From positions 564-62,472 of the forward strand of contig CAZZGH010000001.1 in NCBI GenBank assembly GCA_964653875.1: a DNA stretch of 61,909 nt, in the 5' to 3' direction. Of the stretch, positions 6,128-42,025 are shown one piece after another. Source of the stretch: an uncultured Candidatus Saccharibacteria bacterium (GTDB lineage Bacteria > Patescibacteriota > Minisyncoccia > 2-02-FULL-40-12 > GWA2-44-9). The number at the start of each line of letters is the position of its first letter. Position 1 is the first letter of the stretch. Position numbers and translations under genes: made by a program. The notes beneath the pieces are model-generated. The model was not told the DNA's origin. It ran no database searches and saw only the letters and a list, made by a program, of their open reading frames with translations.

Positions 6128-8200
6128 ATGAGACGAAAAGTAACGGTCGGTTTGTGCCAAATAAATGCCGGCTTTTCCGGCGCCAATTATCTTCCATATT
6201 CAGCAGGAATCTTGGAGGTATTTGCTCAAAAGAATATTCCGAATATCGATGACTTTCATTTTCTGCCCTATATATTTACTCGCGAATCAGTAGATTCGGC
6301 TGTGAAAAAACTTTTACCCGCAGATGTTGCGTGTTTTAGCCTTTATGTTTGGAATGACCAATTAGCCCGCAGAATAGCCAAAGAACTGAAAAAAATAAAA
6401 CCTGAAATCATTATCGTTGTCGGCGGTCCTCATGTGCCAGATAAATACAAATCTCATATTCAGAATAAACAAGCCACGCTTAAATGGGAAAATCCGAAGA
6501 AAACCGGTCAAGATATAATTGACCCCGCACTAGAAAGAACACAAACCTATTTAAGGGAAAATAATTATATTGACATCGCTGTCCATGGTGAAGGAGAAAG
6601 GCCTTTTTCAATTCTGCTCCAAAATCTATACGGCGACTGGAAAGAAATTCCTTCAATAAGTTTTTTAGATCGAGATGGCTTTATTGTCCAGACCGAAAGA
6701 ATCCCACGCTTAAAAGATCTTGACGAGGTACCTTCTCCATATCTTGAAGGAACTTTTGATTCTATTATCAAAGCATATCCGGACATGGAATGGATTACGG
6801 TTTGGGAGACAAATCGCGGATGTCCGTTTTCCTGTACATTTTGCGACTGGGGTTCAGCTATAGCGTCCAAAATAAATAAGTGGAAAATTGAAAGAGTTTA
6901 TCAAGAAATAGATTGGTTTGCAAAACATAACGTCCAGTTTATTTTTCTCGCTGACGCAAACTTCGGGATTTTGCCTCGTGATATAGAAATAGCCAAATAC
7001 TGCGCCGAAGTGAAAAGAAAGACCGGCCGTCCCAATACGATCACGGTTTCGAATACCAAAAATGCCACCGATCGGTCTTATCAGGTTCAAAAAATATTTG
7101 CCGACGCCGGCCTTGCTGCCGGAGCATCGCTATCAATGCAATCTTTAGATCCTCAAACCCTGAAAGATATAAAAAGAGATAATATCAACCTTGACTCATA
7201 CAGGGAAATTCAACGGCGAATGAAGGAGGATGGTATTTCAGCTTTTACTGATATTGTTCTTGGCTTGCCCGGAGAAACATATGACTCGTTCGCTAATGGT
7301 ATCGATGAACTTATTAGAAGTGGTCTTCATGATCGGGTTCTCTTCTATAATCTTACGATCCTGCCCAATGCCGAGATGGCCGACCCAAGTTATCAAAAAT
7401 TACATGGAATGGAGACAGTAAAAATGAGAAGTGTAAACATTCACGGCAGCAGAAAAGAAATAGAAGGAGACGTTCCTGAAGTGCAGGAGGTGGTAATCGC
7501 GACCAAAACAATGCCCAAAGAGGACTGGGTCCGGGTCTGTGTTTTTAGATGGACTTCAGCATTTCTACACTTTGATAAAATACTTCAGATTCCCCTTGTT
7601 CTCACGCATGAAATTACCGGAGCAAGTTATCGCGAATTGATAGAACTGTTTTCTGAAGACAATATTAAGAAAGCTGAAGAATTTCCCATACTAAACAGGG
7701 TGAGACAATTCTTCGTTGCTAAAGCGCAATCAATTCAGCGCGGAGAAGAAGAATTTTGTCATTCGCCAAAATATATTGATGTACGATGGCCATCTGATGA
7801 ATACATGCTCATTGATTTAGCCATTAACGGCGATCTTCCAGCATTCTATCAAGAAGCATACAGAACCTTGGAATCATTATCGGTTAAATATGGCAAAAGT
7901 GAGAATTTAGACGCAATAAAAGAAGCAGTGCAGCTTAACCAGGATATGTTAAAATTGCCATTCCGTGCCGATAGTCAGGATCTGTTGCTTTCATATAACA
8001 TTTGGGAATTCTATCACGCAGCAATTCGAGGTAAACCCATTCCCTTAGAAAAACACCGTGCTGTCATCACTATAGATTATGAGAGCGAGAAATGGAATTC
8101 ATGGGAAGATTGGTGCCGACAAGTTGTCTGGTACGGCAGTAAGCGCAGTGCTTATCTTTATGGAAACAAAGCTGTCGTTCAAATTGCGGGACATTTCTAA
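6128..8200 (+). CDS. cobalamin (B12)-binding radical SAM enzyme, long form (690 aa), paralog A
   Basis: N-terminal B12-binding Rossmann-like region (FSLYVWN...IIIVVGGPHVPD), the CX3CX2C cluster motif GCPFSCTFCDW, and a ~300-aa C-terminal extension ending AYLYGNK..QIAGHF. Confidence 0.8.
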   Translation: MRRKVTVGLCQINAGFSGANYLPYSAGILEVFAQKNIPNIDDFHFLPYIFTRESVDSAVKKLLPADVACFSLYVWNDQLARRIAKELKKIKPEIIIVVGGPHVPDKYKSHIQNKQATLKWENPKKTGQDIIDPALERTQTYLRENNYIDIAVHGEGERPFSILLQNLYGDWKEIPSISFLDRDGFIVQTERIPRLKDLDEVPSPYLEGTFDSIIKAYPDMEWITVWETNRGCPFSCTFCDWGSAIASKINKWKIERVYQEIDWFAKHNVQFIFLADANFGILPRDIEIAKYCAEVKRKTGRPNTITVSNTKNATDRSYQVQKIFADAGLAAGASLSMQSLDPQTLKDIKRDNINLDSYREIQRRMKEDGISAFTDIVLGLPGETYDSFANGIDELIRSGLHDRVLFYNLTILPNAEMADPSYQKLHGMETVKMRSVNIHGSRKEIEGDVPEVQEVVIATKTMPKEDWVRVCVFRWTSAFLHFDKILQIPLVLTHEITGASYRELIELFSEDNIKKAEEFPILNRVRQFFVAKAQSIQRGEEEFCHSPKYIDVRWPSDEYMLIDLAINGDLPAFYQEAYRTLESLSVKYGKSENLDAIKEAVQLNQDMLKLPFRADSQDLLLSYNIWEFYHAAIRGKPIPLEKHRAVITIDYESEKWNSWEDWCRQVVWYGSKRSAYLYGNKAVVQIAGHF

Positions 8201-11997: not shown

Positions 11998-12031
11998 TAC
12001 CCCTAAGAACCTTAATAATTAAGGGGTGCAT

Positions 12032-14179
12032 ATGAGTTCAAAAATAATTCCCCTTACGATAAGAGCCGAAAGTCCTCCACCGACTTCAATTGTTTTAAAA
12101 CCAAAAAACAAGTTAAAAATAGGGCTTGTCCAGCTTAATAACAGCTTTTCCGATCAGAATTATTTTCCCCAGTCTGTGGGAATGATTCAAGCCTATGCTC
12201 AAAAATACCTGACCCATGCTGAAGACTATGACTTTCTTTTGCCACTTTTTACTTTTATGCCGATTGACGAGGCAATAGATAAGTTAAGCGATGCCCATGT
12301 TCTGGCCATTAGTCTTTATGTTTGGAATTTTGAAAATTCTATGGCCATAGCCAAAGAATTTAAGAGACGATACCCAGAACGGTTAGTCATCGTTGGTGGA
12401 CCTCATGTACCTGATAGCAAAAAACAATTTGCCAGAATAAAAAAAAGCGACCCCAAACCGGATGATCTTAAGCGTAAAAGAATGGGCATGACTGAAAAAT
12501 TTCATCAGGATAATCCTTATATTGATACTGCTGTTCATGGCGAGGGCGAAAGAGTGTTCAAAATGATTTTAGAGCAGGTGCCGGACAGCCTTGCCAATAA
12601 AAGCCGGATTCCCTCAATAAGTTATCTCGATTCGAATGGAACTTTTCATCATAATCCCAAACTTGAACGTATGCATGATTTGTCTGAAGTTCCTTCTCCA
12701 TATTTAGACGGGGTATTTGATACTCTTATGGCAGCTCATCCAGACCAAAAATGGATTGCGATGTGGGAAACTGATCGCGGCTGTCCTTATCAATGTACAT
12801 ATTGCGATTGGGGCGGTGCTATTGAAGATAAGATAAGCCTTTTTCCGCTTGATCGCATCACAAAAGAAACTTGGTGGTTCGCAGAAAGAAAAGTCCCCTA
12901 CATCTTTATCGCTAACGCCAACTTCGGACTTCCTAAACAGGATGTGCAAATTGCAAGAGTCCTGGCTGAAGTTAAAAAGGCTACTGGATATCCCGAAGGC
13001 GTATCTGTACAGAATGCAAAGAACCCCAAACCCCACACGTTAGAAGCTCTGAAAATTCTTCAAGAAGCCGGACTGAACAAGGCAACCGTAATGTCCATCC
13101 AGTCAAAAAATCGCGAAACCCTTGAAGCTGTTCGCCGACAAAACATGAAACCGGAAGAATATCAAATAATCCAAAAAGAACTAAGGGCTCAGGGTGTTTA
13201 CACAATGACTGATTACATCATTCCGATGCCCATGGAAACATACCAAAGCGTATTAGAAGGTGTTTCAAAAATTATTGAAGATGGACAACATGACAGAATT
13301 CAGTTTAATAATCTTTCCATATTGCCTAACGCAGAAATGGGCGATCCGGAATATCAAGAAGAATATGGAATGGAAATGGTTAGGACGCCAATAACGAACA
13401 TCCATGGCAAGAAAAATGCATCCATTAGCAGCATTGAAGAATACCAAGAACTTGTCATCGCAACCAGCACCATGTCTCGAGAAGAATGGATTAAAACTCG
13501 CTCATTCTGCTATGTGGTAGGGCTTATTTATTTCAACAAGCTCCTACAGATACCAATAATGATCCTGCATGAAGTTTATGGAATACCCTATCAAAAAATA
13601 TTTGAAGTATTTATGGAAACCCCAAGACGATCTAACAAATTTCCTGTTTTCGCCGAGTTGCTAGACTTCTTTGAGGAATTCTCTCGAGGCATTCAAAATG
13701 GTACAAACGAAGAGTTTTACCATTCTAAGGAGTGTCTCAATATTCTATGGCCTCCGGACGAATATGCATTTATAAAGATATGCAGAGAAGGAAAATTTGG
13801 TCAATTTTACGAAGAGGCATTGGCGATGATGACGAACCTCGTAAGTTCAAACCAATCTGCTGAACCGCTACTAGATGCGGTGAAGCTTAACAAATCCTTG
13901 ATAAAACTGCCGTTTCAAACTACTGATTTAGAAATGGCCTTATCTTATAATATTTGGGAGGTTTATAAGGCCGCACTTATTGAACAAGAGTTGGAACTTA
14001 AAAAAGGCATACATAATTATTCTGTTGACAGAACGACAAAATCAGATTCTGCAAACACTAACGCGAGATGGGACTCATGGGAAGAATGGTATGAAAAAAT
14101 GGTCTGGTGGTGCAACCGCCGAGGAGCATATCTCTATGGAAATAAAAATCCGCACACAGAGATTGCCGGTCATCACTAA
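12032..14179 (+). CDS. cobalamin (B12)-binding radical SAM enzyme, long form (~715 aa), paralog B
   Basis: Collinear with 6128-8200 (ISLYVWN...LVIVGGPHVPD, GCPYQCTYCDW, C-terminal AYLYGNK..EIAGHH). ATG at 12032 is preferred: AAGGGG lies 5 nt upstream, whereas the ORF track starts at GTG 12026. Confidence 0.8.
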   Translation: MSSKIIPLTIRAESPPPTSIVLKPKNKLKIGLVQLNNSFSDQNYFPQSVGMIQAYAQKYLTHAEDYDFLLPLFTFMPIDEAIDKLSDAHVLAISLYVWNFENSMAIAKEFKRRYPERLVIVGGPHVPDSKKQFARIKKSDPKPDDLKRKRMGMTEKFHQDNPYIDTAVHGEGERVFKMILEQVPDSLANKSRIPSISYLDSNGTFHHNPKLERMHDLSEVPSPYLDGVFDTLMAAHPDQKWIAMWETDRGCPYQCTYCDWGGAIEDKISLFPLDRITKETWWFAERKVPYIFIANANFGLPKQDVQIARVLAEVKKATGYPEGVSVQNAKNPKPHTLEALKILQEAGLNKATVMSIQSKNRETLEAVRRQNMKPEEYQIIQKELRAQGVYTMTDYIIPMPMETYQSVLEGVSKIIEDGQHDRIQFNNLSILPNAEMGDPEYQEEYGMEMVRTPITNIHGKKNASISSIEEYQELVIATSTMSREEWIKTRSFCYVVGLIYFNKLLQIPIMILHEVYGIPYQKIFEVFMETPRRSNKFPVFAELLDFFEEFSRGIQNGTNEEFYHSKECLNILWPPDEYAFIKICREGKFGQFYEEALAMMTNLVSSNQSAEPLLDAVKLNKSLIKLPFQTTDLEMALSYNIWEVYKAALIEQELELKKGIHNYSVDRTTKSDSANTNARWDSWEEWYEKMVWWCNRRGAYLYGNKNPHTEIAGHH

Positions 14180-14300: not shown

Positions 14301-15275
14301 TTGAAAGCATTAATCACGGGAATTGCCGGTTCCGGAGCCAGCTATTTGGCCGAATACATCATTGCCAATAAGCCTTCGGTTGAATTACACGGCACAATCC
14401 GCTGGCATAGCACTGTTTCCCAAAAAAATATTGAGGCAATTCATGGAAAAGCAATCATCCACGACTGCGATCTAAACGATCCGATGGCCGTTTGCCGTTT
14501 AATAAATGGAATAAAACCAGACACGATTTTCCATCTCGCATCTTACGCCAACGTAAGAAAGGCCTGGGACAATCCGGTTGGCGTTTTGCAAAATAATATC
14601 ATGAGTACGATATATCTTTTAGAAGCCGTCCGGTTAACTGGAATTAAACCCACAATTCAAATGTGCAGTACACCGGAAGTATATGGACAAGTTGACCCAA
14701 AAAATATTCCTATCGATGAAAACTGCCCGATTAACCCCAACAATCCCTACGCTGTTTCAAAGTACGCCCAGGAGTCGCTGGGATATTCTTATTTTAAAGG
14801 TCATAGTTTACCGATAATCATAACCAGAATGTCTACTTACATAAACCCGCGCCGAGAGGATCTATTTGCCACATCTTTTGCCATGCAAGTGGCCAGAATA
14901 GAAGCCGGCCTGCAAAAAGAATTGCTTCATGGTAATTTGGATTCTACAAGAACAATCCTCGACGCTAGAGATTGCGCTAGTGCTTACTGGGTAGCTATGG
15001 AAAAAGGTGAGCCCGGAGAGGCCTATAATATCGGCGGTAATAAAGTTGTAACCGTTGGAGAGTTTTTGGAAATCCTGAAAAAGAAAACCCGCTGTTCCAT
15101 TCCCTCCAAAGTGGACGAAGGACTGCTCCGTCCCGTGGATGCCACTTTGCAAATAATTAATACAGAAAAATTCTTTAAACAGACCGGCTGGCAACCCGTA
15201 TATGACTTTGAAGAAAGCATAGGATTTCTTCTTGAACATTGCCGTAAAAAAATTAGCCACGAAACCCCGCGATAA
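14301..15275 (+). CDS. NAD(P)-dependent sugar dehydratase/reductase of the Gmd/Rmd branch of extended SDRs
   Basis: TTG start. N-terminus ITGIAGSGASYLAEYII resembles the Gmd [12 protein letters not shown] motif. Also has NPYAVSK (YxxxK) and a degenerate INPRRED in place of NHESPRRGE. Confidence 0.65.
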   Translation: MKALITGIAGSGASYLAEYIIANKPSVELHGTIRWHSTVSQKNIEAIHGKAIIHDCDLNDPMAVCRLINGIKPDTIFHLASYANVRKAWDNPVGVLQNNIMSTIYLLEAVRLTGIKPTIQMCSTPEVYGQVDPKNIPIDENCPINPNNPYAVSKYAQESLGYSYFKGHSLPIIITRMSTYINPRREDLFATSFAMQVARIEAGLQKELLHGNLDSTRTILDARDCASAYWVAMEKGEPGEAYNIGGNKVVTVGEFLEILKKKTRCSIPSKVDEGLLRPVDATLQIINTEKFFKQTGWQPVYDFEESIGFLLEHCRKKISHETPR

Positions 15276-22704: not shown

Positions 22705-22741
22705 TTAAAGATAAAATTAAAACCGCTTTAAGCGGTTTTTT
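22705..22741 (-). terminator. rho-independent terminator for fcl (stop codon lies in the loop)
   Basis: ACCGC-tttaa-GCGGT flanked by A- and T-runs. On the minus strand it is followed by UUUUAAUUUUAU. Confidence 0.6.
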
Positions 22742-23684
22742 GTACTCGGGACAAATACCAGTCAATTGTTTTTCTTAACCCTTCGTCAAAATCCGTCTTC
22801 GCCTTAAAGCCGAATTCTCTTTCAGCCCTTGAAACATCGAGGCATCTTCGCGGCTGGCCATCCGGTTTTGTATGATCCCACATTATCGAACCATTGAAAT
22901 CCATGAGTTTACAAATTTTGTATGCCAGCTCTCTTATGGTAATCTCAAATCCGGCACCGATATTTACAGGCTCTGCTCCTTCGTAATTTTCGGCCGCAAG
23001 AACTATCGCTTCAGCTGCATCTTCCACATACAAAAACTCTCTTGATGCATTACCCGTACCCCACAATTTGAGATAATGCTGATTAAATTTCTGGGCATCT
23101 GCCACTTTTTTGATTAGCGCCGGAATGACATGGCTTCTTTCCGGTTCAAAATGGTCTCCAGGACCATATAAATTAACCAGCAGAAGATATATCGAATTAA
23201 ACCCATACTGTCGTCGATACGCCTGACCTTGGACTAAAAGCATTTTCTTTGCCAAGCCATAAGGTGCATTTGTTTCTTCCGGATATCCATCCCATAAATT
23301 TTTTTCATTAAAAGGAACCGGAGTAAATTTAGGATAAGCACATATCGTACTTATGGTGACGAATTTTCCCACTCCTGCTTGACGTGCCGCCTCCATCAGT
23401 TGGCAACCCATCGTTATATTGTCATACACAAGCTCTCCTGGCTTTTCTTGGTTATATCCTATGCCGCCAACATTTCCTGCAAGATGAATTACAATATCAG
23501 GTTTCTTCGATTTGAGTAGAACTTCACAGTTTTCCTTTTTTCTTAGGTCGAAAAATTTGGATCTGGGAACATAAATTTGATACGGTTTTATCCCAAAATC
23601 AAGAAGTCTTTTTATAACATGCCTGCCAAGAAATCCCGAGCCACCGGTAATTAAAAAAGGTTTGTCGGTAAATTTTTGATCCAT
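22728..23684 (-). CDS. fcl: GDP-L-fucose synthase (GDP-4-keto-6-deoxy-D-mannose 3,5-epimerase/4-reductase)
   Basis: Collinear with E. coli Fcl motifs: [75 protein letters not shown]. Confidence 0.85.
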
Positions 23685-33883: not shown

Positions 33884-34900
33884 TCAGGTTTTTACAAGGC
33901 CGGCTATTTTTATTATTTCTCCAATTCTTTTGATGTAGGTGTGGTCTTTCTTGGCTCTGTTAAATCCTGCTTCGGCAATTTTTAATCTTTCCTCTTCGTG
34001 ATTTAAATAATATTCCACCTTTTGGCGCACATCATCAACCCCAGAAAAAGAAATAAATTCTTTCCCATCCTCGAAAATATTAAAAATATCCTTTCTGTCA
34101 TCACGATTTAGTAGCATAGCTCCTGCCGATGTGGCCTCAAATGTCCTTAAATTTACCCCCGTTCCCAATACTTCTCTTGAAATATCGGCATTAATTACAA
34201 TTTTACTGTTCCTATAAATATTTTGGATATCTCCGGTTCTTACTCGCCCTTTATAATAATTTTTCAAGGAGGTGTTCAGCCAGGCCTCATTCCCCCAAAG
34301 ACACAAGCCCAGGTCTTTGATTTCGTTTAAAATATGTTCGCGTTCGCCATATAACTTCTGGTCATAAGTTCCAATAAAAGAAATCTCATAAAGATATTTT
34401 TCAGGTCTCGCCCATTGGTCATTTTCGTTTAAATCAGCCGAGAACGGAACATACAAGGCATTTTTAAATCCTTCTTTTTTCATCATTTCTACCACATAAG
34501 GGTCATAGTTAACAAAATAATCATAGCATGGTGCGATTTTTTTAATTAAATCCCACTGATCCATTGTCTCCGGGTAGTAATTAATTGCGGGACAGATCTT
34601 TCTTAAAAAACTTAAAGTTTCAGGATAAAGATTGGGAGCTTTTACAGCAAAGACACAATCGGGTTTAACCTTTATAGCTTGGCCGAGTATTTTTTTATTT
34701 ATTTTTTGTTTGGCATATTTTTTAAAACGGCCATACATTGGCAAAGTTTTTGCCAAACGGTGAATTATGCTATCAGGATTAGTGGTAAAGTTGCCACGAT
34801 AGTCAATTGTAAATACGTTAAATCCATGAAATTCAAACGCACTGCGTAACGGGGCATACATGGTCGAAGAAACCGGCGCAATTAATAGTATTTTGTTCAT
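33884..34900 (-). CDS. CgeB-like/DUF3880-type glycosyltransferase
   Basis: C-terminal NLRTFEATSAGAMLLN...FISFSGVDDVRQKVEYYLNHEEERLKIAEAG is typical of the CgeB-family Glyco_trans_1_2 domain. Confidence 0.55.
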   Translation of the reverse strand: MNKILLIAPVSSTMYAPLRSAFEFHGFNVFTIDYRGNFTTNPDSIIHRLAKTLPMYGRFKKYAKQKINKKILGQAIKVKPDCVFAVKAPNLYPETLSFLRKICPAINYYPETMDQWDLIKKIAPCYDYFVNYDPYVVEMMKKEGFKNALYVPFSADLNENDQWARPEKYLYEISFIGTYDQKLYGEREHILNEIKDLGLCLWGNEAWLNTSLKNYYKGRVRTGDIQNIYRNSKIVINADISREVLGTGVNLRTFEATSAGAMLLNRDDRKDIFNIFEDGKEFISFSGVDDVRQKVEYYLNHEEERLKIAEAGFNRAKKDHTYIKRIGEIIKIAGLVKT

Positions 34901-36000
34901 GGCCTATTTATTTTTGGTTTATAAAAATCGGCAATTTTATTGCAGATAAATTTAATATCTGAGTCTTTGAGAAAAGATGATGATGGCAACCATAAACCAT
35001 GCTGTCCGGCATAAGTCGCCATAGGAAAACTTCCCCGAACACGTTTAAAGATTGGCTGACTGTGAAGCGCCGGATAAAAAATCCTCGAACCGATGTTACT
35101 GTCTTTTAAATGCTTCTGCAGCGCCAACGGATCGGGGACAATAACATCGATAAACCACGGGGAAACATCATTTAGATCCGTCCCGATAAGCTTAACCTCA
35201 TTCACGCCAGTCAAATATTTTTTATAAAGCAAATAAATGTCTTTTTTTAATTTAGTTCTTTGAGGTAGCTTTTTCATTTGTTCTATTCCAAAAACAGCCT
35301 GTAAGTCGGTAAACTTAAAGTTCCAGCCGATATCGTCATGCCAGTCAATTCCGGCTCCAACTCTGCCGAAATCTTTTAGTTTTTCTATTTTGTCATAGAC
35401 ATCCTTATTATCAGTAACAAGAGCCCCGCCCTGACCGGTGGTAATAATCTTGGGAACACTGAAAGAAAAACTCCCAATAACGCCGTGCCTGCCCAAATGT
35501 TTGTTGTTGTAAAACGACCCCAGTGATTGAGCTGCATCCTCCACTAAATATATTTCTTTATCTTTACATAACTTTTTGAGTTTATTTAAGTCCCCAGCTC
35601 GACCATTAATTGATACATGGATTACGGCTTTTGTTTTGGCGGTTATGGCTTTTTTTACAAGTTCCGTATTTAAACACAAAGAATCATTAACATCCACAAA
35701 AACTGGTTTCGCGCCCGCCATTACTACCGAATTTGGCGTAGCGATCATGGTATAATCGGGCACAATAACTTCATCGCCCGCTTTAATTCCAAGGGCTTTT
35801 AAGGCCAGGAACAAACTGACTGTCCCGTTCGATACGACACTGCAATATTTTGCCCCAGTATAGTCGCAAATCATTTTTTCGAACTCTTCAGTTTTTTTAA
35901 ATTCCATCAACCATCCGCCCGAATTTAAATAATCGAGAATTGCCTTCTTTTCTTCCTTACCATACCATGGCTCCATTTGATTTATATTTTTAACTTTCAT
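34897..36000 (-). CDS. DegT/DnrJ/EryC1/StrS-family PLP-dependent sugar aminotransferase
   Basis: SNGTVSLFLALKALGI, VEDAAQSLGS and SFSVPKIITTGQGGAL, with the Schiff-base Lys retained. Confidence 0.85.
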   Translation of the reverse strand: MKVKNINQMEPWYGKEEKKAILDYLNSGGWLMEFKKTEEFEKMICDYTGAKYCSVVSNGTVSLFLALKALGIKAGDEVIVPDYTMIATPNSVVMAGAKPVFVDVNDSLCLNTELVKKAITAKTKAVIHVSINGRAGDLNKLKKLCKDKEIYLVEDAAQSLGSFYNNKHLGRHGVIGSFSFSVPKIITTGQGGALVTDNKDVYDKIEKLKDFGRVGAGIDWHDDIGWNFKFTDLQAVFGIEQMKKLPQRTKLKKDIYLLYKKYLTGVNEVKLIGTDLNDVSPWFIDVIVPDPLALQKHLKDSNIGSRIFYPALHSQPIFKRVRGSFPMATYAGQHGLWLPSSSFLKDSDIKFICNKIADFYKPKINRP

Positions 36001-36563
36001 GCTTTTTTAGCTTCTAAATTCAAGCTGATTAAAATACCGTTCTTTTTGTCAAGGTGAGGAATATATGCCTGTGAATGATCGTCATAATTCTTATGAATCG
36101 TTTTCTCCCAATCGTATCTTCGAATATTCTTAAATCCGGCCATTTGCAGCATTTTTTTCAAGGATTTAAAATCATAAACTGTCTTGTGATAAATTACCCT
36201 GCTTTCTTTGTCTTTTTCCTTAATGATCATGCGGCCGAAAAGAGGTCCTAAAATACCTTTGTGTTCAATGTCTTTTCTGTATTTTAAATAAACGTGGGTT
36301 ATTGCTTCAAAATCAGGAACGGCAATTCTTAGAATGCCTCCGGGCTTTAAAACGCGATGCCATTCTTTCAAAACCTTCTCTCCTTCCTGTCTGTCGAAAT
36401 ATTCAAAACTATGGGAAGTGTAAATTAAATCCACCGATTTGTCGGAAAACATCGGCAAGTCAGCTATATTGTGCTTGTAAGCCAGGTGTGGATAGTCATC
36501 CAGGTCAATATGAATAAAACCCGGAATAAATCTTTTTCCAGACCCTAAATAAAGTTTAATCAT
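35997..36563 (-). CDS. SAM-dependent methyltransferase (Methyltransf_11-like)
   Basis: LYLGSGKRFIPGFIHIDL, LKPGGILRIAVPD. Confidence 0.7.
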   Translation of the reverse strand: MIKLYLGSGKRFIPGFIHIDLDDYPHLAYKHNIADLPMFSDKSVDLIYTSHSFEYFDRQEGEKVLKEWHRVLKPGGILRIAVPDFEAITHVYLKYRKDIEHKGILGPLFGRMIIKEKDKESRVIYHKTVYDFKSLKKMLQMAGFKNIRRYDWEKTIHKNYDDHSQAYIPHLDKKNGILISLNLEAKKA

Positions 36564-36940
36564 AGTAAGATCTTGTCTTCAATAAATGGACCGTTTTTTA
36601 GCTCTATTATTTCTGCGTCTTCCAAGATATGGATGCCAAGGCCGGCGTTTATTAGAATAAGGAGATCTCCTGTCTTCATGATTAATTTCTTGAACATTTT
36701 CTTATCGGGACCGTATAAATCAATTTTGATCTTTCCTTTTTTAACAATTAGACACTCCTGCATTTTTTCGGTCTGTCTTTTGGTGGGTTTGTGAGTATGA
36801 GCCACCAGGTATTTACCCTTTGAATGTTTCAGGGTTACCAGCTGAAGCGGTTCTTTGCCGTCAGTCTGAGGAATACTGCCACGAGGAAAACGGCCAAGAA
36901 AAATAGCTACTAATTTATTTTTATATTTTATTTCAGCCAT
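36560..36940 (-). CDS. small cupin-fold protein (WbuC/CapF C-domain-like)
   Basis: 126 aa with H-T-H...E..L-x-G beta-barrel motifs (VAHTHKP, CLIVKKGKIKIDL). Sits in an L-FucNAc-type gene context. Confidence 0.45.
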   Translation of the reverse strand: MAEIKYKNKLVAIFLGRFPRGSIPQTDGKEPLQLVTLKHSKGKYLVAHTHKPTKRQTEKMQECLIVKKGKIKIDLYGPDKKMFKKLIMKTGDLLILINAGLGIHILEDAEIIELKNGPFIEDKILL

Positions 36941-36941
36941 A

Positions 36942-39188
36942 TTATATTCGGTTAACTTTAACTTTTCGATTGCTTGTGTTTTTTACATTATCAAAATCAT
37001 GTTCGGTCATTAATTGAGCCAGTTTTTTAAAGGTAACTTTTGGCTTCCATCCCAAAATTTTTTTTGCTTTTGAAGCATCACCTATCAACAGATCCACTTC
37101 CGAAGGCCTGAACAGAACCTTATCCACACAGACCAAGAGCTTGCCTGTTTTTTTATCGTAACCCCTCTCATCAACGCCTTTTCCTCGCCATACGATATTG
37201 TATCCGAGATTCTTGCCGACTTCTTCAACAAATTCTCTGACTGTGTGGGTTTCACCGGTAGCAATTAAAAAATCGTCCGGTTCTTTGTGCTGTAAGATCC
37301 TCCATATCGCTTCCACATAGTCCTTGGCATAACCCCAATCTCTTTTTGCATCTAAATTCCCCAAAGAAAGCACATCTTGAAGACCCAGTTTAACCCGCGC
37401 CAAACCTATGGTAATTTTTCTGGTAACAAACGTCTCGCCCCGACGCGGCGAATTGTGAACATAACATTTACCAATGCCGCAATGAAATGTTCCCGACATT
37501 GTTTCTAAATCATAGAACCAACCGGCGTATTCCGGCAAATCTATTATTTTCTTAACTTCAAGAGGATCTTTTTTTAAGTGATGAATAACGCACGCAGTAC
37601 CGCCGTTTTGTATTTTTCTTATAAAAGTTCTCGAAATTGACGTCAATCTGTTCATTTCTCTCTGGGATATGTTTTTCAACATCAGTTTTTTTATTTCTCC
37701 CTCTTTTGTGAAGTTGTTTTGAGTGGTGAGAATATTAAGAGAATAAAATATTCTCCCGTCATCCTTCATTTCTAAGGTGAGATTTATATCCTGACCGGTT
37801 GTTTTGTCTATCAAATACCATAAACCCATTGCCAGTGTCGCAGAGTTTGTTTTAAAGTTTCTAAATTCGTAAGTACAGAGGTTTTCTTTTAACCCATCCG
37901 TTAAATTGTAACCTTTTAAAAAAGCCAGCATAATGTTTGAAGAAGAATTTAAAATTATCGCAGGTACTTTTTTTGTCTTATCTTTGTTATAAATATCTAA
38001 ACTTCTTAGCCAATTGTTTCCGCCCACTAACCTTAATTGCCCGACTATCTTCTTGGGATTAAAACCAGATTTTGACGGGTAAAATGCCGTATGGCCGCCA
38101 GTGACTTTTCGCCAAAGAAAATCAAAATAACTCCTCAATTCTTCGGATGAATTGGTGAATTTTCCGTTTAAACCAACGCCATTTTTTGCGCGAGTAACTG
38201 ATCCGTCTCCAACCATCATTCCCATCAGCTCTGCTTCAGTTTCCGATATAGTATTCCGCAAGTTTTTTATAAGAGGTAGTTCTATCGAGGATAAACGATG
38301 GCCAACTTGCAGGTCTTTTACCTTTTTTTCTATTCCATCCGACATAAACGCGACATGACTCGATGTTGCCATAAAAGCGCCCGATCTTGAGTTTACGAAT
38401 CGTGGGAATTTATTATCCTTTTTTATATTATGGGGGTATGCTGACGCAAAAGTGACATTAACCCACCCTTTCTTGTCCCAAACTTGAATTCCCGAGACTT
38501 TTTTTGACTGATAGCTCTTTTTAGATTCGTCAAATTCTACTATTTCACAAACTGGTTTTATGTCTAAATATTCTTCATCAGATTTTTTATAAAACATTGG
38601 CATAAATGAAGCTATCGTTTCGTGGTTAAATAAAATTCCGTTTGAAGCGAAAAGGCCATATGCATTTCGATGAACTTTGGTCATCCAGTAGGCAAGCGCT
38701 TTAGAGACACCATAGGGTGATTGCGGATTAAACGGCGTGGTTTCTTTTTGGGGTACTTCAAGAACCTTGCCGAACATTTCACTGGATGAAGCCTGATAGT
38801 ATTTAGTCTTAATGCCTGAATCTTTTATCGCGTCCAGAAGCCGCAACGCCCCCAGCCCGGTAACATTAGCCGTATATTCTGGAATATGAAAACTGACGCC
38901 GACGTGGCTCTGTGCTCCCAAATTGTAAATTTCATCAGGTTTAATTTTTTCCAGTAACCGGCTCAAATTTGAACCGTCGGATAAGTCTCCATAAACTGTC
39001 GTAAAATTAGGATACTTTGGATTGTCGTACAGATGATCAATCCTAGCCGTATTGAAAGTGCTGGTCCGGCGCTGAAGGCCGTAGACCCTGTATCCTTTTT
39101 CAAGCAAAAATTCGGCTAAATAAGATCCGTCCTGGCCGGTAACACCCGTAATCAAAGCCGTTTTGAGGGATTGTTTAGACCTTTTCAT
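36942..39188 (-). CDS. gmd: GDP-mannose 4,6-dehydratase interrupted by a 389-aa intein
   Basis: The exteins (190 + 169 aa) match Gmd: [47 protein letters not shown]|...|[14 protein letters not shown]. The joined length of 359 aa is normal for Gmd. Confidence 0.9.
37452..38618 (-). mobile_element. intein with a LAGLIDADG homing-endonuclease domain, inserted in gmd (aa 191-579)
   Basis: Block B TSSH (ATSSHVAF). LAGLIDADG motifs [12 protein letters not shown] and [12 protein letters not shown]. Blocks [23 protein letters not shown], followed by the +1 Ser. The first residue is Thr (ACG, 38618-38616). Confidence 0.85.
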
Positions 39189-39236: not shown

Positions 39237-40418
39237 CTAAAAGAATCCTATAATCTTTTCCGCCCTTTTGGCCCAAGTATATTCTTGAACATCTTCTAGG
39301 GCTTTCCTGGCTATTCTTTCTACTAATTCCTTATTATTGTCATCAAAAACCCAAGCTATCTTTTCAGCCAAATCTTTAGCGTCACCCGCTTTAGCAAGAA
39401 CCGAATTATTCTCATTTAAGACCTCTCTAAAGGATGGCAGATCTTGTGCCACAATCGGACAACCGGAAGCCATATATTCAAACATCTTGAGAGGAGAAGT
39501 ATATCTTGCTGAAATAGTTTCCGTCTCTTTTCCGGTTAAAATAGCACAATCGGCAGCTACTAAAATCTTGGCTATGTCTTTATGCGGCAACCTGCCATAA
39601 AACGGCACAATATTTGGGTGCATACCTCTCTTCAAGTTTTCAACATCTTTATCGGCACCGCCAACAATCCAAATAAGGAAATTAGGGTTATGTTGTTTTA
39701 AATATTCTGCAACACTTATTAAAATATCGGCTCCTTTCCAAGTATAGAGGTTACCTATATAAACTGCTATCTTTTTACGTCTATAGGAGTCAAAGTGATT
39801 AGTAAAAAGTTTTTCTCTTAGTTCTTTTTGCTTTTTTTCTCGTTCTTCTCTTTTAATTAGTTGGAATTCTCCAAGATCCACACCATCTGAAGCTACTAAA
39901 ATATTCTCCGGCTTAAAGCCTGTTTTTGTAAAATCTTCTCTAAGGTATTTTGTAATAACTACTAACTTTATGTTTCTTTTTTTAAATCTCCTATAGAATA
40001 TTTTTCGTGATTTAGATAAATTATGAGCCTCAAATATTAAATTTCTCTTGAAAAAACTTAACAAAAAGAGAGGTAATTCGTCCCGAGAATAAATAATATC
40101 TGATTTTTTAAATAGAGCATAAGCGCTCAAAAAAATCGCCGATATAAGACTTTTTATTAGAACCGATGCGATGTCTAACTTGCCTGGAAAATAGAAATCA
40201 GGAGCCCAGATCCTTTTGGCCTCAAAATTATTTTTGACTGATTGAACCGAATAGTAATCAAAAATATTTTCTTTGATATTCGGATTATTTCTCTTTGGAT
40301 AAAGCAGTGTAATCCCCAACCCGGAATCCGCAAACGCCTCGCACGTTTTGGCGATTTGGATGCCATAGGCCTTCTCGGTCGGTAATCTTAAATTTGCTAT
40401 ATATAATAAACTTCGCAC
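39237..40418 (-). CDS. glycosyltransferase, GT-B fold (GT4)
   Basis: LYIANLRLPTEKAYGIQI is a typical GT4 N-terminus, and the C-terminus has FEYMASGCPIVA. GTG 40418 is preferred. The ORF-track start at 40481 is TTG and would bury the TTGACC-17-TATAGT promoter inside the CDS. Confidence 0.75.
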   Translation of the reverse strand: MRSLLYIANLRLPTEKAYGIQIAKTCEAFADSGLGITLLYPKRNNPNIKENIFDYYSVQSVKNNFEAKRIWAPDFYFPGKLDIASVLIKSLISAIFLSAYALFKKSDIIYSRDELPLFLLSFFKRNLIFEAHNLSKSRKIFYRRFKKRNIKLVVITKYLREDFTKTGFKPENILVASDGVDLGEFQLIKREEREKKQKELREKLFTNHFDSYRRKKIAVYIGNLYTWKGADILISVAEYLKQHNPNFLIWIVGGADKDVENLKRGMHPNIVPFYGRLPHKDIAKILVAADCAILTGKETETISARYTSPLKMFEYMASGCPIVAQDLPSFREVLNENNSVLAKAGDAKDLAEKIAWVFDDNNKELVERIARKALEDVQEYTWAKRAEKIIGFF

Positions 40419-40424
40419 TAAAAA

Positions 40425-40453
40425 ACTATAGAACAAAAAATATACAGGGTCAA
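40425..40453 (-). promoter_or_regulatory. promoter: TTGACC, 17-nt spacer, TATAGT. The -10 ends 6 nt before GTG 40418 (leaderless geometry)
   Basis: Minus-strand -35 is at 40453-40448 and -10 at 40430-40425. Confidence 0.45.
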
Positions 40454-40455
40454 TA

Positions 40456-40484
40456 TTGAAAACAAACAAATATTGTTCCAAAAT
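40456..40484 (+). promoter_or_regulatory. divergent promoter: TTGAAA, 17-nt spacer, CAAAAT, for the radical SAM gene
   Basis: -35 at 40456-61 and -10 at 40479-84. AAGGAGG lies at 40507-14 before the ATG at 40520. Confidence 0.4.
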
Positions 40485-40519: not shown

Positions 40520-42025
40520 ATGAAAATTTGCCTGATAATCCCTCCGTCTATTTTCCTTTTAGACGAACGGGTTTTTATGACACTGGGCATATTAAAAGTT
40601 GCGGCTGTTTTGGAAAATTCTGGCCGGAAAGTTGATGTAATAGATCTGTCTGGAATATCTAACTATGAAAAGGTGATCGAGGACTATTGTCGTGAAAACA
40701 CAATCACAATCTTCGGGCTAACAGCTACCACGCCTCAATTACCGGCAACGATCAAAGTTCTTGAAACGATAAGAGTTTACAAACCGGAAGCCAAGATAAT
40801 TCTGGGAGGCCCCCATATCACACTGGTAAACGCCGCTTACAAGAGAGAGAGAAAGTTAAACATTAACGGACGGGCAACTACGGCATTTGACCAGTTGAGC
40901 CATGATTTTGACGTTTTAGTGGCCGGCGATGGAGAAGAAGCGATCTTTGAGGCGCTTAAAGAAAAAGCTCCCAAACTAATAGACGCAGACATTCCATCCA
41001 AGCCAACTGACACGAGCATTAAACCGGTTCTTTTTTTAACCAACAAACGTTTAAACGAATTGCCCTTTCCCGCTCGACACCTGGTAGACGTAGATAGCTA
41101 TAACTACACAATAGATAATATCCGGGCACTAAGTATGATCGCCCAACTGGGATGTCCGTTTAACTGCGGATTTTGCGGAGGCCGGGAGTCCGCTATGCTT
41201 CGCCGGATACGGATGCGGACAAGCGACAATATCGTAGCTGAAATGAGCCACATATTTCAAACATACGGCATTAGGGGTTTCATGATGTATGACGATGAGT
41301 TGAATGTAAATACAAAAATCGTTGAGCTGATGAAATTGATTGCCCAGACCCAAAAGACACTGGGTACAGAATTCCGTCTCCGGGGTTTTATCAAGTCGGA
41401 ACTTTTTACCGAAGAGCAGGCCGAGGTGATGTACGAGGCCGGTTTCCGCTGGATATTGGTCGGATTTGAATCCGGCTCTCCGAGAATTCTTGAGAACATA
41501 AACAAAAAAGCTTCTCGTGAAGACAACACCCGCTGTCTCAAAATTGCTAGAAAGCATGGTCTTAAGGTTAAAGCTCTAATGTCCATAGGCCACCCGGGCG
41601 AGTCCAAAGAAACAGTCATGGACACCCGTGATTGGCTCCTTCAGGTTAAGCCGGATGACTTTGATGTTACTATTATTACCACTTATCCCGGAACGCCATA
41701 TTATGACCATGCAGTCCCCCATGAAACTGAATCCGGAATTTGGGTTTATACTTACGAAAAAACCGGCGATAAGCTATACAGCAAAGAAGTTGATTACAGA
41801 ACTACCGCCGATTACTACAAAGGCGACCCCGAAGGCGGGTATCAATCATTTGTCTATACTGACTTTTTGAGTCCCGAACAACTCGTCGAACTAAGAGACT
41901 TTGTCGAAAAAGATGTTCGGGCTAAATTAGATATTCCCTTCAACCCAAGTGCTCCGGCTATTCGCTACGAGCATTCCATGGGACAGACAAATATTCCAAA
42001 CCACATTTTGAGATCAACATCCTAA
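40520..42025 (+). CDS. cobalamin-binding radical SAM enzyme
   Basis: The N-terminal B12 domain (FGLTATTPQ...IILGGPH), the QLGCPFNCGFCGG motif (CX3CX2C), and GFESGSPRIL. Confidence 0.8.
   Translation: MKICLIIPPSIFLLDERVFMTLGILKVAAVLENSGRKVDVIDLSGISNYEKVIEDYCRENTITIFGLTATTPQLPATIKVLETIRVYKPEAKIILGGPHITLVNAAYKRERKLNINGRATTAFDQLSHDFDVLVAGDGEEAIFEALKEKAPKLIDADIPSKPTDTSIKPVLFLTNKRLNELPFPARHLVDVDSYNYTIDNIRALSMIAQLGCPFNCGFCGGRESAMLRRIRMRTSDNIVAEMSHIFQTYGIRGFMMYDDELNVNTKIVELMKLIAQTQKTLGTEFRLRGFIKSELFTEEQAEVMYEAGFRWILVGFESGSPRILENINKKASREDNTRCLKIARKHGLKVKALMSIGHPGESKETVMDTRDWLLQVKPDDFDVTIITTYPGTPYYDHAVPHETESGIWVYTYEKTGDKLYSKEVDYRTTADYYKGDPEGGYQSFVYTDFLSPEQLVELRDFVEKDVRAKLDIPFNPSAPAIRYEHSMGQTNIPNHILRSTS

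Follow-up and report, generated by a model that had tools for sequence, protein, structure and literature searches.

The locus described here raises the question whether a natural intein can employ threonine as the nucleophile of its first splicing step. It lies in a stretch of 61,909 nucleotides of contig CAZZGH010000001.1 (we use "the window" for this whole stretch), in which the gene for GDP-mannose 4,6-dehydratase (gmd, protein Gmd) is interrupted by an insert that starts with Thr (Thr1). We consider it highly probable that the insert is a functional, mobile class-1-type LAGLIDADG intein, situated in gmd at NHE/SPRRG (splice junctions are marked by a slash) and endowed with a natural Thr1 nucleophile. 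An earlier reading, made from the DNA letters alone (the sequence-only reading), had placed a LAGLIDADG intein at this site, and three results bear it out: the boundaries are unique, an allele with an empty site exists, and the predicted fold is that of an endonuclease-bearing intein.

The insert and its boundaries in gmd

The precursor is encoded by an open reading frame (ORF) of 748 aa on the minus strand (36942..39188; ORF list and DNA read), which divides into an N-extein of 190 aa, an intein of 389 aa (37452-38618, 1167 bp) and a C-extein of 169 aa; these coordinates and lengths, as given in the sequence-only reading, proved exact (Table 1). The upstream junction reads AAC CAC GAA/ACG ATA GCT TCA TTT (NHE/TIASF) and the downstream one TAT GTT CAC AAT/TCG CCG CGT CGG (YVHN/SPRR). 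Even with the insert in place, the exteins score 504 bits on the Gmd equivalog TIGR01472 (cutoff 415), the match falling into two stretches. The 359-aa product obtained by splicing in silico can be aligned to the solved Gmd structures with no gap at the junction (450 bits to 7kf3, 5in4 and 1db3; E = 5.8e-134 for 7kf3). Both the structure alignment and the empty allele described next show that removal of the insert restores the conserved host protein in frame. The interrupted motif, NHESPRRG, is invariant, which is sufficient to explain the choice of homing site. The G+C content of the intein is 35.9%, against 42.7% for the exteins.

A search of 5.8 billion proteins with the spliced exteins as query gave intein-less Gmds (345-387 aa) for all of the best 120 matches, and the top one, 94% identical, came from a Candidatus Yanofskybacteria genome (locus L064). 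Its gene order is shared with the window: glycosyltransferase, B12/radical-SAM enzyme, glycosyltransferase, gmd, 126-aa ORF, methyltransferase, DegT aminotransferase and glycosyltransferase. The two loci are collinear in blastn at 77-83% nucleotide identity, with window 39168-38619 corresponding to L064 10010-10558 and window 37451-33907 to L064 10559-14122, so that L064 is unbroken between 10558 and 10559, exactly where the window holds the 1167-bp insert. The empty site reads GCCTCAAATGGAATCCTGTTTAATCATGAA/TCGCCCCGCCGGGGCGAGACATTCGTCACG; the peptides flanking the junction are identical in both loci (10 + 10 residues) and 47 of the 60 flanking nucleotides match. This syntenic empty allele, contiguous at the junction, settles the boundaries of the insert. 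From the synteny we infer a host among the Patescibacteria that resembles Ca. Yanofskybacteria. Rfam and tRNA scans recovered no rRNA or tRNA genes in the window. Shifted junctions were considered and rejected, including any that would give the intein a Cys or Ser as first residue, an alternative named in the sequence-only reading: NHESPRRG is restored solely by E/T...N/S, and the empty allele agrees.

The identity of the insert was approached through its predicted structure. Modelling with AlphaFold2 on 25 family sequences gave a predicted local distance difference test score (pLDDT) of 86.9 and a predicted template modelling score (pTM) of 0.85, and the top Foldseek matches of the model in the PDB were full-length inteins that bear an endonuclease: TliVMA (7qsu, E = 1.3e-18), PI-PfuI, PI-PkoII and PI-SceI. 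These were followed by free-standing LAGLIDADG enzymes, with I-SceI, I-DmoI and I-WcaI matched at E 1e-6 to 1e-8, and by mini-inteins, which match the splicing domain. At the sequence level, the family profile matched PI-PkoII (E = 2.6e-11) and the TliVMA intein (E = 3.7e-10), and the insert itself matches the equivalogs of intein-containing DnaB and V-ATPase weakly. The motifs TSSH, WFYDLET and VHN/S and the two LAGLIDADG motifs, already pointed out in the sequence-only reading, were all found at verified coordinates. These findings identify the insert as an intein of class-1 type in which a LAGLIDADG endonuclease is nested, class 1 being taken in Perler's definition (Ser1, Thr1 or Cys1; PMC5222942); a 2023 review (PMC10663303) and a 2026 research paper (PMC13014065) give position 1 as cysteine or serine, a wording that Thr1 falls outside of, and the remark in the sequence-only reading that Thr1 is atypical thus holds.

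Threonine at position 1 across the intein family

A search with the insert only returned 52 matches by word index, all in Gmd, and 504 by exhaustive comparison, of which the top ~100 were mostly Gmd interrupted at the same site. In the proteins with a visible N-junction, residue 1 was Cys (31), Thr (20) or Ser (16); the apparent exceptions were variants of residue -1, and across the ~75 junctions of the family position 1 is C, S or T only, never a non-nucleophile. A genome scan, with one genome per GTDB species, yielded 61 loci, of which 57 had a readable junction and four did not. Thr1 was encoded at 32 of these loci (ACG 10, ACA 14, ACC 6, ACT 2), Ser1 at 20 (TCN and AGC) and Cys1 at five (TGC), and the precursor frames were uninterrupted at all 32 Thr1 loci. 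In IMG/VR, 18 further contigs carried intact Thr1 precursors, many of them low in G+C, 65-470 kb long and including metagenome-assembled genomes (MAGs) of giant viruses; the viral calls of that collection may include cellular contigs. The comparison with metagenomic relatives that the sequence-only reading had recommended thus brought further gmd alleles and further Thr1 examples (32 genomes, 18 viral contigs).

These counts bear directly on whether the ACG codon, read at 38616-38618 as in the sequence-only reading, could stand for a Ser (TCG/AGC) or Cys codon that was misread in sequencing or assembly. A single base change from ACG to TCG would indeed give Ser, but ACG stands at the same position in ten other independent genomes, with ACA, ACC or ACT in 22 more and Thr codons in the 18 viral contigs as well, and we regard the chance of such an error as negligible. 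Since the synonymous codons vary while the amino acid stays, Thr is selected at position 1. The suspicion of a degenerate element or a read error, voiced in the sequence-only reading, therefore fails against at least 50 independent intact Thr1 precursors that use all four Thr codons, together with the purifying selection described below. Judged by these sequences, Thr1 is a real and maintained natural variant and not an error.

A tree built on 54 full inteins gathers Thr1 into one deep clade, the members of which are in some pairs only ~40% identical and in which Ser or Cys members are occasionally nested; P0152 and P0147 represent a second, separate Thr1 lineage. Some 40 relatives reside in other host proteins, many at a ...YGD/S junction; all are Ser1, which places the root of the family among Ser1, cysteine-independent inteins. 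In the codon network TGC-AGC/TCC-ACC, single-base steps lead from Cys by way of Ser to Thr.

The residues that are invariant across the Thr1 clade are T1, T85, H88, D370, H388, N389 and S+1; no Cys is among them. The acidic residues of the LAGLIDADG motifs, D138 (GMMVGDG) and D241 (GYNLTDG), are kept in nearly all 57 loci. The distribution of these residues has to be weighed against the idea that the intein splices without Thr1 as initiator, with Ser+1 attacking as in class 2 or an internal residue as in class 3, and with Thr1 merely tolerated. Class-2 and class-3 mechanisms are both natural (PMC2807308, PMC5222942), Thr is a poorer, beta-branched nucleophile, and residue 380 is Cys in 61% of the Thr1 clade against Ala in 83% of the Cys/Ser relatives. 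That Cys380 is, however, missing in 39% of the members, positions B:12, F:4 and G:5 hold Ala, Asp370 and Val in place of the WCT triplet of class 3 (with Thr as residue 1), and position 1 is never the Ala, Pro or Gln of classes 2 and 3, as fits a required side-chain nucleophile. Class 3 and class 2 of the KlbA type were rejected on these grounds, the latter because residue 1 is never Ala in the ~75 family junctions, and we consider initiation by another residue unlikely. With position 1 never a non-nucleophile and no invariant Cys, class-2 and class-3 chemistry is disfavoured and a hydroxyl at residue 1 would be required.

Other features accompany Thr1. The penultimate His (G:6) is present in 100% of the Thr1 inteins and in 61% of the Cys/Ser relatives, where AN, GN or SN is a frequent ending; its conservation may reflect a functional coupling to the weaker nucleophile, or mere phylogeny. 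The alignment columns S59, Y61, F368 and H388 co-vary with Thr1, a pattern that is confounded by phylogeny. A helix-turn-helix (HTH)-like module (residues 300-347) sits between the endonuclease core and block F and may contribute additional DNA binding to the recognition of the target; it occurs in most members of the Thr1 clade and is missing from ~89% of the Cys/Ser relatives.

Several further observations were made on members of the family. Gmd precursors with a Thr1 intein, in unbroken ORFs of 720-800 aa, occur in the giant-virus MAGs and other large low-G+C viral contigs (L067-L087, IMG/VR), for instance on L070, a contig of 473 kb with 27% G+C, and on the giant-virus MAG contigs L071, L082 and L084; viruses may carry the intein between cellular lineages. 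The intein of P0016, to which those of L070 and L071 are likely related, holds a Cys/His-rich, zinc-finger-like insert, CCYCNHIFARKSNYDKHIDKC, before its first LAGLIDADG motif. The Gmd fragment P0052 (611 aa) contains the C-terminal end of an intein at the usual site, followed by a second, unrelated intein elsewhere (...WGHAKDY/CIDLDT...VSGN/CEAMHL...), so that Gmd has at least two insertion sites. Members of the same intein family, all Ser1, were also found in Rmd-like paralogs of the extended short-chain dehydrogenase/reductase (SDR) group (P0113, P0117, P0118 and P0132), at a site homologous to that in Gmd (junctions ...TRAFNH/SVSRRTP... and ...RMFTH/SISYDSP...), which suggests cross-paralog homing. 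Four loci with Cys1 or Ser1 Gmd inteins (L033, L036, L047 and L063) have open frames of 1058-1206 aa, far above the length of Gmd plus intein, which may represent fusions, further inserts or stop-free upstream sequence.

Gene calls in public records give another picture of some of these genes. For L001 (2696-4951) and L002 (3392-5647), and likewise for P0019, P0023, P0025, P0028 and P0032, the NCBI call is a C-terminal fragment of ~305-550 aa starting at an internal Met, one of them labelled 'XRE family transcriptional regulator'. We considered whether such ~310-aa C-terminal fragments on long contigs represent broken or split gmd genes and rejected this, as the frames of L001 and L002 are open upstream and encode complete precursors of 751 aa; the fragments are artefacts of how the start codon was annotated. 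The truncated calls probably arise from the failure of intein hidden Markov models (HMMs) to detect the family.

Selection, mobility and a proposed mechanism

The exteins of the window differ from the empty L064 allele by dN 0.028 and dS 1.15 (dN/dS, ω = 0.025, the lowest in the operon, with neighbours at 0.04-0.16), a comparison that spans time both before and after the insertion. Among within-clade pairs of genomes, 9 of 245 were usable for dN/dS, dS being saturated in the rest, and the Thr1 pairs that were unsaturated at synonymous sites gave ω values of 0.02-0.24 for the exteins and 0.05-0.33 for the intein. By these ratios, both the exteins and the intein are under purifying selection. 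Within the Bacteroidota-type Thr1 group the divergences of intein and extein are correlated (r = 0.71) and the exteins are 75% identical, which indicates that the intein has long been inherited vertically together with a host gene under constraint.

The clade to which the window's intein belongs has a different signature. It comprises Patescibacteria, Omnitrophota, Planctomycetia and two short contigs (3.5 and 7.9 kb) binned as DPANN archaea, the binning of short MAG contigs being unreliable, especially for these two archaeal labels. Mean identity within the clade is 68% for the inteins versus 60% for the exteins, which as a rule are highly conserved; the correlation between the two is weak (r = 0.41), and the intein is more conserved than the exteins in 180 of the 190 pairs. 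For the pair L017/L018 the intein dS is 0.92 and the extein dS 2.0, so that the intein is younger than the host gene. Inteins that are more alike than the exteins around them are the signature of horizontal homing and point, indirectly, to recent homing of this kind in the clade, which would call for a working endonuclease and, in practice, for an intein able to splice. The intein-less state of the 120 closest extein relatives, the lower G+C content of the intein and the retention of both LAGLIDADG Asp residues lend indirect support as well.

These patterns have to be set against the possibility that the Thr1 intein is splicing-dead or impaired and that gmd is effectively a pseudogene, retained through the action of a selfish endonuclease or tolerated in a pathway that the cell can do without. 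Such a state would be compatible with a Gmd that is non-essential, with splicing deduced from comparison and with an element that intein HMMs miss. It is difficult to reconcile with window exteins that are 94% identical to an intein-less ortholog and more tightly constrained than all neighbours, with the co-divergence of the Bacteroidota-type lineage and its conserved, low-ω exteins, with the open precursor frames at every Thr1 genome locus, and with a gmd that is followed in its operon by an aminotransferase and transferases dependent on the Gmd product, in a window that holds no true Gmd paralog. We judge a dead or impaired element to be very unlikely.

For a functional Thr1 intein, splicing would occur with Thr1 as the nucleophile of step 1, and the endonuclease would be active. 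The pathway that we propose would start with an attack of the Thr1 hydroxyl on the carbonyl of Glu(-1), an N-O acyl shift helped by Thr85 and His88 of block B and Asp370 of block F. Trans-esterification would then transfer the N-extein to Ser+1. Cyclisation of Asn389, assisted by His388, would follow, and the peptide bond of NHE-SPRRG would be re-formed through an O-N shift, to give an active Gmd of 359 aa and a free intein, the endonuclease of which would cut empty gmd alleles and so bring about homing.

A number of points weigh against a functional Thr1 intein, to which the two limits given above for the dN/dS comparisons (the time span covered and the few usable pairs) also belong. The Pfam Hint and Intein_splicing models and the NCBIfam models of intein N- and C-termini gave no match to the insert at E ≤ 1, and Pfam LAGLIDADG_3 scored 21.5 bits, just under its cutoff of 22.5; because the standard intein HMMs miss the insert, its membership of the inteins is drawn from structure prediction, motif positions and profile matches. 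Gmd is moreover non-essential, so that an insert unable to splice might be selected against less strongly here than in replication genes. Finally, the support for splicing, for the ester intermediate and for endonuclease cleavage in the Gmd intein family is computational rather than biochemical. Our assessment of the element as a functional Thr1 intein, as graded at the outset, takes these points into account.

A wider reading is offered tentatively, and we think it slightly more apt to fail than to stand as a whole: that these are the first documented natural class-1 inteins to use a Thr nucleophile; that they are splicing-competent, cysteine-independent and homing among Patescibacteria, Omnitrophota, Bacteroidota and giant viruses; that, at a single site, Thr1 evolved from Ser1 ancestors on two or more occasions; and that, with the penultimate His retained, splicing is perhaps tuned, slower or conditional. 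More than 50 intact Thr1 inteins in a deep clade under purifying selection would imply that nature uses all three hydroxyl and thiol nucleophiles at step 1. The Gmd site would then provide a natural Cys/Ser/Thr series for studying how the active site is tuned when the N-O acyl shift takes place on a residue that is beta-branched, and cysteine-independent inteins are wanted for protein ligation under oxidising conditions. The Gmd intein may also serve as a tracer of gene flow among uncultivated bacteria and giant viruses, and it exposes an annotation gap, with intein HMMs missing the family and NCBI reducing the genes to C-terminal fragments.

Genomic surroundings and comparison with known inteins

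The features of the precursor gene and of the operon downstream of it are collected in Table 1. Just upstream of gmd lies a glycosyltransferase gene (39237-40481, minus strand) with 61% amino acid identity to its counterpart in L064 (8813-9955) and ω = 0.16, where the other neighbours reach 74-94%.

Table 1. Positions in the window of the gmd precursor, its predicted splicing and endonuclease elements and the adjoining operon.
Feature	Position	Strand	Evidence
Complete precursor ORF, Gmd N-extein + intein + Gmd C-extein, 748 aa	36942..39188	-	ORF, TIGR01472 match
N-extein, Gmd residues 1-190, ends ...GILFNHE	38619..39188	-	aligns to L064 10010-10558, 83.5% nucleotide identity
Intein, 389 aa: predicted HINT splicing domain, nested LAGLIDADG endonuclease and HTH-like module	37452..38618	-	junctions, model, profile
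Intein residue 1, Thr (ACG), proposed N-terminal nucleophile	38616..38618	-	conserved as Thr, 4 codons
Block B, T85-S-S-H88 (TxxH)	38355..38366	-	T85 and H88 invariant
LAGLIDADG motif 1, putative catalytic Asp138	38199..38240	-	motif GMMVGDG
LAGLIDADG motif 2, putative catalytic Asp241	37884..37934	-	motif GYNLTDG
Three-helix HTH-like module, intein residues 300-347	37578..37721	-	model; Pfam HTH_19 E = 0.01, below cutoff
Block F with Asp370 at F:4	37488..37535	-	motif position, alignment
Block G, GIGKCYVHN, with His388-Asn389	37452..37478	-	DNA read, alignment
Ser+1 (TCG), first C-extein residue, predicted second nucleophile	37449..37451	-	DNA read
C-extein, residues 191-359 of spliced Gmd, and stop codon	36942..37451	-	DNA read, alignment to Gmd and L064
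Co-directional downstream operon: 126-aa ORF, methyltransferase, DegT-type aminotransferase, glycosyltransferase	33884..36940	-	syntenic with intein-less Yanofskybacteria locus

The sequence-only reading had suggested that a second Gmd-family gene at 14301-15275 (plus strand) might buffer a loss of function. This gene, which has a TTG start and a YxxxK motif and matches the broad Pfam GDP_Man_Dehyd domain, scores 125 bits on TIGR01472, far from the cutoff of 415, and has TYINPRRED where Gmd has FNHESPRRGE. It encodes an extended SDR of another kind, probably a reductase of the Rmd type or some other enzyme acting on nucleoside diphosphate sugars, and a backup Gmd within the window was rejected, as the gene fails both the equivalog cutoff and the motif. 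Three B12-binding radical-SAM enzymes (6128-8200, 12026-14179 and 40520-42025) belong to a single large glycan-biosynthesis cluster, which also contains many GT1/GT2 enzymes, PMT-like transferases, TPR proteins, an O-antigen-ligase-like protein, a carbamoyltransferase and an Fcl-like gene (22728-23684), a composition that suggests an elaborately modified surface glycan.

In the open-access literature (subscription papers, supplementary tables and intein databases were outside the scope) we found no report of a natural Thr1 intein and no relevant report of a Gmd intein, and one explicit statement there holds that Thr1 has never been observed in nature. Among solved structures the best sequence match is PI-PkoII, the DNA polymerase intein 2 of T. 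kodakarensis (PDB 2cw7), which shares the HINT + LAGLIDADG architecture of the window intein (Foldseek E = 8e-14, with only ~14% identity in the structural alignment) and differs from it in its DNA polymerase host, its natural Ser1 and the lack of an HTH-like insert. We take PI-PkoII and the Tli Pol-2 intein to be orthologous inteins of the pol-c site. The S1T mutant of Tli Pol-2 splices (PMC2807308) and is the sole Thr1 splicing precedent reported, albeit an engineered one. The top structural match, the VMA intein of T. litoralis (PDB 7qsu/7qss; template modelling score 0.54-0.60), is likewise class 1 with a nested LAGLIDADG endonuclease, but it is archaeal, resides in a V-ATPase and has Cys1 (crystallised as C1A).

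Independence from cysteine, with oxygen nucleophiles at positions 1 and +1, is shared by the window's family with the cysteine-less inteins PolB16 OarG, Aes123 PolB1 and GOS-TerL (PMC10189870, PMC13014065); these are Ser1, naturally split mini-inteins, whereas the window intein is Thr1, contiguous and endonuclease-bearing. Class-3 (WCT) and class-2 (KlbA, Ala1) inteins are further exceptions to the Cys/Ser rule for residue 1; they have no nucleophile there and use Cys F:4 or the +1 residue. In the window intein, by contrast, position 1 is occupied by a nucleophile, F:4 is Asp and the WCT triplet is missing. What we propose as new here is a natural, widespread and maintained Thr at step 1, together with the insertion site in Gmd; the pathway itself would be that of the known class-1 inteins.

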